Program-made: the position numbers and the translations under genes | DNA from: a virus | Taxonomy: Duplodnaviria; Heunggongvirae; Uroviricota; Caudoviricetes | Virus record (IMG/VR): IMGVR_UViG_3300021142_000006 | Direction: 5' to 3' (one strand) | DNA length: 64,000 nucleotides | In this document: positions 2,145 to 48,557 of the stretch, one piece after another | Layout: the number at the start of each line of letters is the position of its first letter | How positions within the stretch are numbered: position 1 is the stretch's first letter | The notes under the pieces: model-generated | The model's input: the letters and a program-made list of their open reading frames with translations, nothing else | Databases searched by the model: none | What the model was told of the DNA's origin: nothing

Positions 2145-2375
2145 GTTGTATATACCTTTTTAATTGTGTTCTTTTACACCAGTGGATGAATTAATGGGTT
2201 TTGTTCAGGGTTGTATATACCTTTCAAATTGTGGTCTTTTACACCACTTCTGCGTTATGGTTGATCTGTTCTATGTTGTATATACCTTTCAAATTGTGGT
2301 CTTTTACACCATTGTTTTGGTAAAACGTTTTGGAAATGTGTTGTATATACCTTTAGGTGGTATAAGTTTAAAAGG
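2145..2375 (+). CRISPR. Mini-CRISPR array: 4 repeats of 36 nt (GTTGTATATACCTTTCAAATTGTGGTCTTTTACACC) and 3 spacers of exactly 29 nt
   Basis: Repeats at 2145-2180 (3 mismatches), 2210-2245 and 2275-2310 (identical), and 2340-2375 (degenerate after the first 15 nt, typical of a terminal repeat). Spacers at 2181-2209, 2246-2274 and 2311-2339 are unique and of uniform length. An AT-rich leader-like tract lies upstream (about 1990-2144). A GAGGA-TAAT-TCCTC hairpin follows immediately downstream (2387-2400). Orientation is inferred from the degenerate repeat being distal to the AT-rich leader. Confidence 0.7.
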
Positions 2376-3899: not shown

Positions 3900-3946
3900 A
3901 TTAGTAAAATTCAGATATTAATTTAAAATTTGTGTGTGTGTGTGTA

Positions 3947-4327: not shown

Positions 4328-5281
4328 TTATTTAAATCCGATTTCTTTATGTGCTTTTCCTCTTGGTATTTTTTTCATTCCTTTGAGGTGTGCTATGGCT
4401 GATTCATATTCTATATCGAGCAGAACAACGGATGTAAATAGTTCTTTTAGGTGTGACATGGATAGGCCTTCTGTGTCTTTAACCCAGCGATTTATATCAA
4501 TTTCAGATTTGCTATCACCAATTTTATTAAGGATATAGACTTTTCTAACTTCTTCTGATGGTGGTGAAACGTAATATCTTCTATCGAATCTGGATGGTCT
4601 GTTTGTGATTCTTTCGGCTAATTTTTCTGGATAATTGGTTGTTGCGATATAAACAACGTTTTCGATTTGTTTTATGCCATCCAAGATATTTAGCAATGCT
4701 GATGTGCAATCATTGCTATATTCGGCAACCGAATCGATATCTTCGATAATTACTATCAGTGGTCGATTGGGTTCAATTTGTCTAAATTTTGGGATTAGTT
4801 CGAGATATCCTTTGATTGAATTTTCGTCTTTGAGGTTTATTACGATACCTTCGAGTTCGTTAATAATTTGCTTCATACAAAGTTGAATAATACCAGATTT
4901 ACCACATCCAGGATCACCATGGAGTAATATACCTCTTTTATGCGTGGGTTTATATTGTTGGTAAAAGTCTTTCTTTTTCCAAAATGATTTTATATCCTTG
5001 AGGATATTTTCGATTTCCTCTGTTGGTAGTTCAAATAATTCATCAGTGTTTATTTTCTGATAAAGCATACAAAAATCATTAACTTTATAGTCCCATGTTA
5101 TTTCATATAATCCTGAGGGTAATGTGTTCAGTGAGGCTGTTGCTGGTAAAAACCCACCGTCACCTAAAATGCTCCATTGGCTAAAATTTTTGTATTCCAT
5201 ATTTATTGTTTCTCTTGTTACTGGTATTTCTTGATTATAATTTTTGTATTCCATTTTGATTTCTTTGGGATATAAAGCCAC
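4328..5281 (-). CDS. AAA+ ATPase
   Basis: Walker A motif GDPGCGKS, Walker B motif IVIIEDID, and a sensor/arginine-finger region ATTNYPEKLAERITNRPSRFDRR. Confidence 0.8.
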   Translation of the reverse strand: MALYPKEIKMEYKNYNQEIPVTRETINMEYKNFSQWSILGDGGFLPATASLNTLPSGLYEITWDYKVNDFCMLYQKINTDELFELPTEEIENILKDIKSFWKKKDFYQQYKPTHKRGILLHGDPGCGKSGIIQLCMKQIINELEGIVINLKDENSIKGYLELIPKFRQIEPNRPLIVIIEDIDSVAEYSNDCTSALLNILDGIKQIENVVYIATTNYPEKLAERITNRPSRFDRRYYVSPPSEEVRKVYILNKIGDSKSEIDINRWVKDTEGLSMSHLKELFTSVVLLDIEYESAIAHLKGMKKIPRGKAHKEIGFK

Positions 5282-6279: not shown

Positions 6280-6942
6280 TTACATATTAAATAATGTTTC
6301 AATATATTGTATTGTTGGGTAGTAATTACCTTTTCCGTTGTATTTTTCATCAACGGCGGTTTTAAATTGTTGGAGTGTTCCTCTGAAACAGCCAGCTGAT
6401 ATCATTTTATCTGAAAATGTAATGGTTATTGTCCTATTTGTGTTACCCAAAGAGGATATTGTCATATAATCTGATGTTTTCTCAACTTTAGCTTCACCAC
6501 ATATTACAACCATACCAGAAACTAAAGCGTTACCAAATACCTGAGCATTACCTAATACCTGAGCATTACCAGATACCTCAGATTTACCATATACGTGAGC
6601 ATTACCAGATACCCAAGCATTATCAAATACCTGAGCATTACCAGATACGTGAGCATTACCAGATACCCAAGCATTATCAAATACCTGAGCATTACCAGAT
6701 ACGTGAGCATTACCATATACCTGAGCATTACCTAATACCCAAGCATTACCAGATACATAAGCATTACCATATACGTGAGCATTACCAGATACCCAAGCAT
6801 CATCCAATAAGTTACTCACTTTCTCAATAAAACCACCTTTTGTTCCAGCTTTTCCCCATATGCAATCTTCTGTTAATTCAATACGGTAAAGTGTTTTGAA
6901 ATTGAATTGTATTTTTTCATCCGTTAATTTATATGGTGTCAT
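6280..6942 (-). CDS. hexapeptide-repeat (beta-helix type) protein
   Basis: About 17 tandem GNA[HQW]V[SYF] hexapeptide repeats. The underlying DNA has near-perfect 18-bp and 57-bp tandem repeats at about 6530-6800. Confidence 0.6.
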   Translation of the reverse strand: MTPYKLTDEKIQFNFKTLYRIELTEDCIWGKAGTKGGFIEKVSNLLDDAWVSGNAHVYGNAYVSGNAWVLGNAQVYGNAHVSGNAQVFDNAWVSGNAHVSGNAQVFDNAWVSGNAHVYGKSEVSGNAQVLGNAQVFGNALVSGMVVICGEAKVEKTSDYMTISSLGNTNRTITITFSDKMISAGCFRGTLQQFKTAVDEKYNGKGNYYPTIQYIETLFNM

Positions 6943-47918: not shown

Positions 47919-48557
47919 TTACCAGCTACCGCCAGAATCAAATGATGATGATGATGAACTACTGTCATATGAAGAAGATGAACTGCTGTCATATGAGGAA
48001 GAAGAGGAACTACTATCATATGATGAACTATTGTCATAAGAAGGACTGCTATCGTAAGAAGGAGAGTTATCATAAGATGGTGATGAATCAATCCAAGATT
48101 GTTGTGTAGAACCTGGGTCAGAAGGTGTAAATGTTGTATCAGACATTGGTACAGTATTATCCTGAACGAAAGTATCTGTATTGTCCTGTACAATAGGATC
48201 TGTATTATCTTGAACAAAATCATCAGATTGACTACTCATGATAATATCTGCGGCCATAACTAAAGGTGTTACAACATCAACATCGTCATCTTCATCAATC
48301 ATCGGTTTTTCATTTTCAAAATAAATCCCCTTTTTATTTAATTCTTGGATATGATCATTTAATTTAGGTTGTGTCGGTGGCACTGGTTCATACATTTTAA
48401 ATGAATCCGTTTGTGAGTTTATTGATTCTGGTTCATGATGATGGTTTTTTTCTATATCATCATTTTTTTGTAATTTTCTTATCATAATAATAAGAATAAT
48501 AAGAACCGATAATACAATTGGCGAAATAATCAAAAGAGATGTAATTGTGTTTGACAT
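47919..48557 (-). CDS. membrane-anchored protein with Ser/Tyr/Asp-rich tandem repeats
   Basis: N-terminal TM helix. The C-terminal SPSYD/SSSSYD repeats are encoded by about 24-bp DNA tandem repeats at 47930-48080. Confidence 0.5.
   Translation of the reverse strand: MSNTITSLLIISPIVLSVLIILIIMIRKLQKNDDIEKNHHHEPESINSQTDSFKMYEPVPPTQPKLNDHIQELNKKGIYFENEKPMIDEDDDVDVVTPLVMAADIIMSSQSDDFVQDNTDPIVQDNTDTFVQDNTVPMSDTTFTPSDPGSTQQSWIDSSPSYDNSPSYDSSPSYDNSSSYDSSSSSSSYDSSSSSSYDSSSSSSSFDSGGSW

Follow-up and report, generated by a model that had tools for sequence, protein, structure and literature searches.

Type V-F CRISPR (short palindromic repeats that are clustered and regularly interspaced) systems, exemplified by the Cas12f/Cas14 nucleases AsCas12f1, CnCas12f1, SpCas12f1 and Un1Cas12f1, combine a miniature TnpB-like effector, bearing one RuvC site and a zinc finger, with a long structured trans-activating CRISPR RNA (tracrRNA) that is specified by a separate gene and pairs with the repeats of an adjoining array. 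In part of these loci the adaptation genes cas1, cas2 and cas4 are present. CRISPR systems of other kinds are found in phages: Seed et al. are said to have described in 2013 a type I-F system in Vibrio phage ICP1 with spacers against the host-resident PLE island, and in 2020 Al-Shayeb et al. reportedly found systems with CasPhi and other effectors in huge phages. The existence of phage CRISPR systems that lack adaptation modules, and of phage systems directed against host defence islands, is established (PMC11656645). TranC systems, according to the reports describing them, consist of TnpB-like nucleases with short arrays in which an ancestral right-end RNA (reRNA) has been functionally split into tracrRNA and CRISPR RNA (bioRxiv 10.64898/2026.03.27.714800; PMC13565253; citing Jin et al., Cell 2025). 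The same descriptions give repeats of 32–38 bp and arrays of 3–20 repeats, list no adaptation genes, and mention a phage-borne member, CauTranC9, with an array reported to target phages (bioRxiv 10.64898/2026.03.27.714800). The locus described here lies in a 64,000-nt stretch (the window) of IMG/VR virus record IMGVR_UViG_3300021142_000006 (Caudoviricetes), derived from a large freshwater phage. It is a phage-borne, type V-F/TranC-like system, a variant of a known sort, composed of a Cas12f-like nuclease, a structured scaffold RNA and three guides. With a probability of roughly 60%, it is a self-contained, adaptation-less type V system aimed at DNA resident in the Bacteroidota host of the phage; this DNA could be an island of the accessory or defence type, or else a mobile element residing in that host.

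The nuclease is Cas12f-like and belongs to the Cas12f/TnpB superfamily. When compared with solved structures, its top matches were the Cas12f entries 9nzo/9nzr (5e-51 with the single sequence, 7e-81 with a family profile), followed by CnCas12f1, AsCas12f1 and SpCas12f1, with Cas14a/Un1Cas12f1 weaker. It contains a Cas12f1-like_TNB domain (Pfam PF07282, 1.4e-14) and passes the guided_TnpB model (NCBIfam NF040570) with 152.9 bits for a cut-off of 100. With the CRISPR_Cas12f2 model (NF049972), the score was 98.7 bits, below the cut-off of 450, a departure from type V-F that leaves membership of the wider Cas12f clade possible since this is a narrow 'exception' model covering one subgroup. The nuclease looks active because D226, E324, D409 and the zinc-finger cysteines are invariant across 27 aligned homologues. 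The end of its gene is separated from the array by 183 bp. The precomputed Pfam hits of all genes called over the 10 kb to either side included no Cas1, Cas2, Cas4 or Y1 transposase (TnpA) family. The locus therefore differs from the V-F loci that carry adaptation genes, and also from TnpB of the IS200/IS605 elements, which it likewise fails to resemble in copy number, the window containing one effector and one scaffold. At least 23 metagenome contigs, up to 150 kb long, carry an effector identical to this one. In the short intergenic region preceding the nuclease gene, 32 bp ahead of its start codon, there is a (TG)7 microsatellite (3931–3945); the length of this tract could in principle vary and influence nuclease expression.

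The array was defined both by reading the sequence and with repeat-finding tools. Its direct repeats, of 36 nt each, were the only copies found in the window when up to 3 mismatches were allowed, and none arose in 100 shuffles. Two are identical; the terminal one has 3 mismatches, none of which touches the intact 15-nt handle at its 3′ end. A sequence-only reading of this stretch had proposed a phage-borne CRISPR-type array with three uniform 29-nt spacers, AT-rich like the genome and not placed by eye elsewhere in the window. All of this held: each spacer is exactly 29 nt long, with the letters originally given; their G+C contents (38, 38 and 28%, in order of increasing position) are near that of the window (30.8%); and the search for a second site in the window gave none, the closest non-self match having 8 mismatches. 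The window itself is phage-like, with dense small open reading frames (ORFs), NAMPT (nicotinamide phosphoribosyltransferase), RNA ligase, HNH endonuclease and ATPases matching phage families. Six contigs of this same phage, obtained from different samples, were 100% identical over the scaffold and array. Since all six assemblies read were identical, the array looks static, with no spacer turnover seen in them.

The strand on which the array is read was deduced from the scaffold that precedes it (Table 1). In the related phages, a conserved stretch of ∼150–160 nt follows the effector gene on its 3′ side and same strand in all loci found. It ends in ...CACUCACC(A/G)AAUACCUUU-loop-AAGGUAUAUACAAC, which is followed by a sequence of guide length and then by full repeats that have AAGGUAUAUACAAC again at their 3′ ends. 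Ten related modules were aligned and folded with RNAalifold, rendering five helices with 27 pairs, of which 12 showed compensatory changes. Overall, 95.9% of the alignment cells concerned were paired, compared with 31–45% when the 3′ partners were slid by one to three columns, and the covariation observed was equalled in 0 of 500 shuffles. The last helix, formed by the anti-repeat and the handle, was paired at 91% across the 10 modules, and contains one-sided G-U wobbles that make pairing possible on the effector strand only. A covariance model built on the alignment detected a sole scaffold in the window (112 bits) and recovered six more outside its training set, upstream of the effectors of the related loci L009–L013 and L015 (86–93 bits); every scaffold it found lies on the effector strand. 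The minimum free energy (MFE) fold of the window scaffold gave the same helices. Scans of the window with Rfam and for tRNAs returned nothing.

Read on the minus strand, the final 15 nt of the scaffold (2340–2354) are AAAGGTATATACAAC, identical to the 3′ end of the repeat, and pair with the upstream anti-repeat AUACCUUU. The duplex predicted between the window scaffold and its own repeat (−17.1 kcal/mol) was tied only by that with the repeat of the closely related locus L109, other relatives' repeats rendering −6 to −14 kcal/mol; the divergent scaffold of L012 showed, in turn, a predicted preference for L012 repeats. A reading in which the array is transcribed from the plus strand was rejected because it conflicts with the scaffold covariation, with the G-U pairs and with the strand of the effector. 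The minus strand is thus almost certainly the one on which the array functions, to judge from these sequence features, and since it is read on that strand the guides are the reverse complements of the spacers first listed. The 15-nt partial repeat copy at 2340–2354 was also considered as a decayed fourth repeat; this was rejected, since it is the 3′ strand of the terminal stem of the scaffold. Guide 1 therefore joins the scaffold with nothing in between, the arrangement of an omegaRNA or of an engineered single-guide RNA; guides 2 and 3 come after full repeats. The sequence-only reading had recognised neither the neighbouring Cas12f-like effector nor the tracr/omega-like scaffold, the strand or this fusion of the first guide to the partial repeat.

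Table 1. Positions in the 64,000-nt window of the nuclease gene, scaffold RNA and array components, in the order in which they are read.
Feature	Positions	Strand	Sequence or remark	Basis
Cas12f-like, TnpB-derived nuclease gene, 453 aa	2538–3899	minus		RuvC D226/E324/D409; CxxC...CxxxxC zinc finger
Structured scaffold RNA, tracrRNA/omegaRNA-like	2340–2502	minus		Covariation, covariance model, MFE fold
Guide 1 (spacer 3 of the sequence-only reading)	2311–2339	minus	ACATTTCCAAAACGTTTTACCAAAACAAT; joined directly to scaffold	
Repeat	2275–2310	minus	GGTGTAAAAGACCACAATTTGAAAGGTATATACAAC (minus-strand reading)	Repeat tools
Guide 2 (spacer 2)	2246–2274	minus	ATAGAACAGATCAACCATAACGCAGAAGT	
Repeat	2210–2245	minus	Same as 2275–2310	Repeat tools
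Guide 3 (spacer 1)	2181–2209	minus	CCTGAACAAAACCCATTAATTCATCCACT	Protospacer located
Terminal repeat	2145–2180	minus		Repeat tools
Flank past terminal repeat	2115–2144	minus		Sequence reading

The flank that follows the terminal repeat could be read as a fourth pseudo-guide, and the run of eight T residues that it contains on the minus strand (2126–2133) may mark the end of transcription; no terminator-like hairpin was scored within it, and its sequence matched nothing in the other fetched loci (∼1.8 Mb).

These features place the locus between several described systems. With type V-F it shares the kind of effector, the long tracrRNA-type scaffold, the adjoining array with its repeat/anti-repeat pairing, a repeat of 36 nt that ends in ...ACAAC and has the guide 3′ of it, and a T-rich stretch 5′ of the one protospacer placed (see below). 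It differs from V-F in being carried by a phage and in the fusion of its scaffold to the repeat handle and first guide, the V-F tracrRNA being a separate gene. V-F effectors are asymmetric homodimers on one guide RNA with PAM-dependent (protospacer-adjacent motif) cleavage of double-stranded DNA; for the phage system one protospacer flank, TTTTTATG, is available. With the TnpB/omegaRNA pairs of IS200/IS605 it shares a scaffold just 3′ of the gene that ends in an attached guide, and a long-range GGUGA/UCACC pairing around internal hairpins. Unlike in those elements, the guide is followed by repeat-guide units and is not simply flanking DNA. The likeness to TranC lies in the TnpB-sized nuclease with a short array, in a repeat length and repeat number inside the ranges given for TranC, in the lack of adaptation genes nearby and, in terms of sequence architecture, in the occurrence of both undivided (reRNA/omegaRNA-like) and split guide RNA forms; TranC also has, in CauTranC9, a reported phage-encoded member, although the array of that one is reported to target phages and the guide placed here matches a cellular-looking locus. 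In the phage family the undivided guide RNA heads the array, and some relatives have a scaffold-array module without a gene; these undivided guide RNAs heading arrays, together with the gene-less duplicate modules, may be the unusual feature of the family. The ICP1 and huge-phage systems are similar in that the phage encodes an effector and its own array, often with no adaptation module, and in having spacers against host-resident DNA or competing phages. They differ in their effectors (type I-F in ICP1, CasPhi and others in huge phages, Cas12f-like here) and in that the target is here an orphan gene.

The related loci were collected by a repeat scan of IMG/VR, which returned two homologous phage loci and nothing else, and by protein searches, which added more; homologous effector loci were found on viral contigs in IMG/VR with lengths of up to 310 kb. 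The relatives' effectors are 41–64% identical and keep the layout scaffold-guide-(repeat-guide)n, with one repeat in L015, three in the window, four in L014 and seven to nine in L012 and L113. Throughout the family the 3′ part of the repeat (the handle) is conserved and the 5′ part varies freely, and the genes neighbouring the cassette differ between phages. A second scaffold with its array, with no second nuclease gene, was observed in L107 (11811–12330) and L109 (8990–9440), and also in L108 and L110–L112; it lies directly past the first array, and is thus a duplicated guide module. In other loci a scaffold and array occur upstream of the nuclease (L010 8981–9960, L015 9453–9960, L009/L013 9477–9900, L011 9365–9950 and L012 9539–9970). 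The upstream modules of L010 and L015 have a degenerate fused handle (AAGGGAATCATTCACAA) and, after it, a stretch of ∼31 nt that is conserved between these two loci and looks like a leader rather than a guide. Because of this degenerate handle and leader-like stretch, both modules appear to be in a split, true-tracrRNA state. In L010, where the upstream scaffold precedes at least nine spacers and the downstream module consists of a scaffold and one fused guide without a repeat, the split and undivided forms appear to coexist within one locus. Truncated repeats and shortened guides (12–23 nt) were seen in L109 (8660–8690 and 8887–8920), L113 (11496–11545) and L107 (11633–11705), which suggests array decay or recombination and not an orderly acquisition of spacers.

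Targets were sought with exact seeds (the PAM-proximal 20–22 nt of each guide), preceded where needed by a 'not C' prefix that drops the array itself. The seeds of guides 1, 2 and 3 (the first two as 22-mers) and those of two relatives' guides gave 0 matches each in IMG/VR. The 22-mer of guide 2 had no match in JGI metagenome contigs, nor had that of guide 3 in 185,579 species-representative genomes. When the array was compared by blastn with GenBank phages only chance matches arose (E ≥0.7), 54 guides of the family gave a best E of 0.6 in the same collection, and among all guides of the family none targeted a related phage in the ∼1.8 Mb of locus sequence compared. Catalogued phages do not appear to be what the system is aimed at. 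With a 20-mer of guide 1, matches were found in nine genomes, in three unrelated genes (oxidoreductase-like, transporter-like and SusD-like) of Chryseobacterium, Mucilaginibacter and Sunxiuqinia, with pairing that ended at nt 20–21; these are probably due to chance, since about one such match is expected in 596 Gb.

The 20-mer of guide 3 rendered two metagenome contigs. In one of them (L088, Ga0214166_1010313; 2,673 bp, 35% G+C) the match extended over the whole guide (29/29, positions 2331–2359), and a further 29/29 match with the same flanks was present in a contig from another sample (L099, Ga0214199_1004881, positions 447–475). The probability that the nine bases past a 20-nt seed would all match by chance is ∼4e-6. 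The second contig, L089, was rejected as a chance match: 5 mismatches come after a 21-nt seed, and the match falls within an unrelated gene, with strand and frame both different. The protospacer stands between TTGATTTGGAACTTTTTATG and CACCAGGTACC; its 5′ flank ends in ...GGAACTTTTTATG, with the T-rich TTTTTATG immediately preceding it, and its 3′ flank begins with CACCAGG. The earlier view that the identity of a protospacer would be informative was thus borne out, with guide 3 placed on two cellular-looking, Bacteroidota-like contigs; the outcomes that it had named as adverse, i.e. matches to the phage itself or to nothing in any database, were not those found. The phage contigs (Ga0214172, Ga0214247) and the target contigs have JGI Ga numbers that lie near one another, which suggests that both came from one sampling series. 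The phage occurs in JGI 3300020733 and 3300021135 as well as in ENA assemblies of the range ERZ272718xx–ERZ272719xx (e.g. ERZ27271916), and the target in Ga0214166 and 3300021124.

The protospacer lies inside, and on the sense strand of, a gene for a 319-aa protein (P0121) that forms one 90%-identity cluster among 5.8 billion proteins. An exhaustive HMMER search rendered 26 distant relatives, including a 30%-identical paralogue specified two genes upstream on the same contig. The ∼280 N-terminal residues of P0121 resemble the N-terminal half of AAA+ proteins of ∼560 aa, the ATPase part of which matches the PADLOC IetA models; P0121 itself has no ATPase. Its AlphaFold model, a confident one (predicted local distance difference test, pLDDT, 86.6), is helical with winged-helix-like modules; the gene is an orphan, and its product is predicted to be tandem winged-helix-like. 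In the phage, a 317-aa AAA+ ATPase is specified on the minus strand at 4328–5281, just upstream of the nuclease gene with two small ORFs between. In a local search it showed no similarity to the AAA+ proteins related to the guide 3 target, and the parallel is probably a coincidence.

At the target locus, two paralogous genes for winged-helix-like proteins of ∼315–320 aa, 30% identical, surround a gene for a 359-aa protein (L088 1–591 and 2025–2672; L099 141–1100), and a weak sigma-70-region-2-like gene is also present. Homologues of the 359-aa protein occur on contigs of Bacteroidetes metagenome-assembled genomes (MAGs), beside housekeeping genes (a nucleoside phosphorylase, an aldolase and genes matching the IF-2B and AP-endonuclease families of Pfam), and also beside WYL/WCX regulators, an AAA ATPase, a toxin-antitoxin pair (HepT/MNT) and an ADP-ribosylglycohydrolase. 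On other Bacteroidota contigs, a WYL-related protein or an AAA ATPase was seen to precede the 359-aa gene. The 359-aa family had no relative in 2.9 million IMG/VR contigs, and neither P0121 nor its neighbour had a homologue in PHROG or among GenBank phages. The target locus may be an uncharacterised accessory or defence module; judged by this neighbourhood, it is best read as a locus that resides in a cell of the Bacteroidota, presumably the host of the phage, and that is strain-variable, defence-island-like or mobile. As between the rival phages and host genes that the sequence-only reading had offered as targets, the host side is the better supported; its further suggestion of a defence gene found no backing in Pfam, PADLOC or PHROG.

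If the locus works as this layout suggests, it would be transcribed from the minus strand, and the RNA comprising the scaffold and guide 1 would load the nuclease directly, like a natural single-guide RNA or omegaRNA. The same scaffold, acting as a tracrRNA, would pair in trans with the full repeats and allow guides 2 and 3 to be loaded. The nuclease would then cut double-stranded DNA beside a 5′ motif. The sole example of this motif, TTTTTATG, is rich in T, as are many PAMs of Cas12f; the copy in the array, preceded by ...ATACAAC in place of TTTTTATG, would be spared. Through cuts in the host-resident locus, an element that harms the phage would be disabled or destroyed; the model is phage ICP1 and its use of a CRISPR system against the PLE island. 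The array has no visible means of acquiring spacers. Several points weigh against this reading. A protospacer was located for only one of the three guides, by searches with exact seeds, and the candidate PAM is based on a single site. Of the target, 3.7 kb are assembled, so that a host chromosome, an integrated element and an unidentified virus are not rigorously separable. A role of P0121 in defence would follow from its neighbourhood alone, given that it received no Pfam, PADLOC or PHROG assignment, and its likeness to MarR/TFE-type winged-helix proteins in a Foldseek search of the PDB was weak (best E 0.02). Upstream of the scaffold, promoter-like sites did not exceed their frequency in shuffles, nor was a terminator scored. 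The absence of Cas1, Cas2 and Cas4 refers to a 10-kb range and to precomputed Pfam hits. Finally, transcription, RNA processing and cleavage are all deduced from the sequence.

The explanation that survives best beside host targeting is competition between viruses or elements, in which the target contig would belong to an uncatalogued rival phage, satellite or plasmid in the same host, and superinfection exclusion would be the use of the array, a role proposed for the arrays of huge phages and for viral mini-arrays. Phage and viral arrays are often aimed at related viruses (PMC11656645) and for a phage-borne TranC9 array phage sequences are the reported targets (bioRxiv 10.64898/2026.03.27.714800); the orphan genes of the target, its two winged-helix-like paralogues and its weak sigma-70-region-2-like gene would fit a mobile element too, and the contigs bearing the target or its closest neighbours are all short (≤6.5 kb). 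Against this, the three seeds of window guides and the two of relatives' guides that were scanned all lacked a match in IMG/VR, and the 54 family guides found nothing in GenBank phages. The target also had no PHROG match, and the family of its neighbour, with no IMG/VR relative, has 41%-identity members beside housekeeping genes in Bacteroidetes MAGs. Competition is on this balance unlikely.

Less probable still, and held to be improbable, is that the cassette is a selfish TnpB-type element of no benefit to the phage, whose nuclease and guides would do no more than maintain it or spread it by homing into cassette-free relatives; its spacers would be old flanks, and the 29/29 match the trace of a past residence. 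That the protein passes the guided_TnpB model, that the fused scaffold and guide reproduce the omegaRNA arrangement, that repeats are decayed and guides truncated in relatives, that the array is static across samples and that the cassette occupies differing gene neighbourhoods in different phages would all agree with this. Yet no TnpA gene was seen within 10 kb and the window has a single copy; the guides in it are bounded by repeats and uniformly 29 nt long, unlike random flanks; the scaffold, handle and catalytic residues are intact and visibly constrained; and the sequence past the terminal repeat, where the homing guide would be, matches nothing in the loci compared. An orphan viral mini-array or RNA anti-CRISPR that uses or blocks a host Cas effector, roughly the picture implicit in the sequence-only reading, has in its favour the shortness of the array (three spacers) and its lack of adaptation genes, such mini-arrays being common in viruses (PMC11656645), but is scarcely credible given that a cognate effector is encoded 183 bp from the array, on the strand of the scaffold, that scaffold anti-repeats and repeats co-vary between relatives, that the IMG/VR repeat scan gave homologous phage loci only, and that no guide matched a virus in IMG/VR or among GenBank phages.

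By these findings, an array whose targets were unplaced becomes a three-part system of nuclease, scaffold RNA and guides, with a strand, guide boundaries and one natural target with its flank. The undivided and split guide RNA forms found side by side in related phages bear on the origin of type V systems from TnpB, and at 453 aa, with a guide RNA that is fused in nature, the nuclease has practical interest as a compact genome editor. Should the target be a host defence island or a satellite, the system would provide a counterpart, between freshwater Bacteroidota and their phages, of the ICP1-PLE arms race. A bolder proposal, which is speculative and on present evidence doubtful, is that the phage family represents a living series from TnpB to CRISPR: the heads of the arrays would be omegaRNA-like, the handle would serve as the template of the repeat, modules would be duplicated without a gene, and arrays of one to ∼10 guides would grow and decay without Cas1-Cas2, with guide 3 marking an unrecognised anti-phage element of freshwater Bacteroidota that is countered in the manner of ICP1 and PLE. 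If this were true, spacers could be gained independently of adaptation proteins, e.g. by recombination or duplication at the handle, and large phages would be a place where type V arrays originate.

Some further features of the phage were recorded. A megablast comparison of 20 kb with GenBank phages gave no relative. An AT-rich motif of ∼46 nt (…ATATTACA…TGTATAATAAT) occurs at 501–546, 1200–1245 and 2037–2066, in each case in an intergenic position before plus-strand genes, and may be a phage promoter or regulatory element. Within the minus-strand ORF at 6280–6942, positions 6526–6793 contain ∼15 copies of an 18-nt tandem repeat, specifying a beta-solenoid protein of the GNAxVxGNAxV type with a faint B_solenoid_ydck Pfam match; the copy number varies among assemblies of the same phage, the product having 202 or 220 aa. 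A cluster of imperfect tandem repeats of 18–27 nt, apparently coding, is present at 47938–48219.

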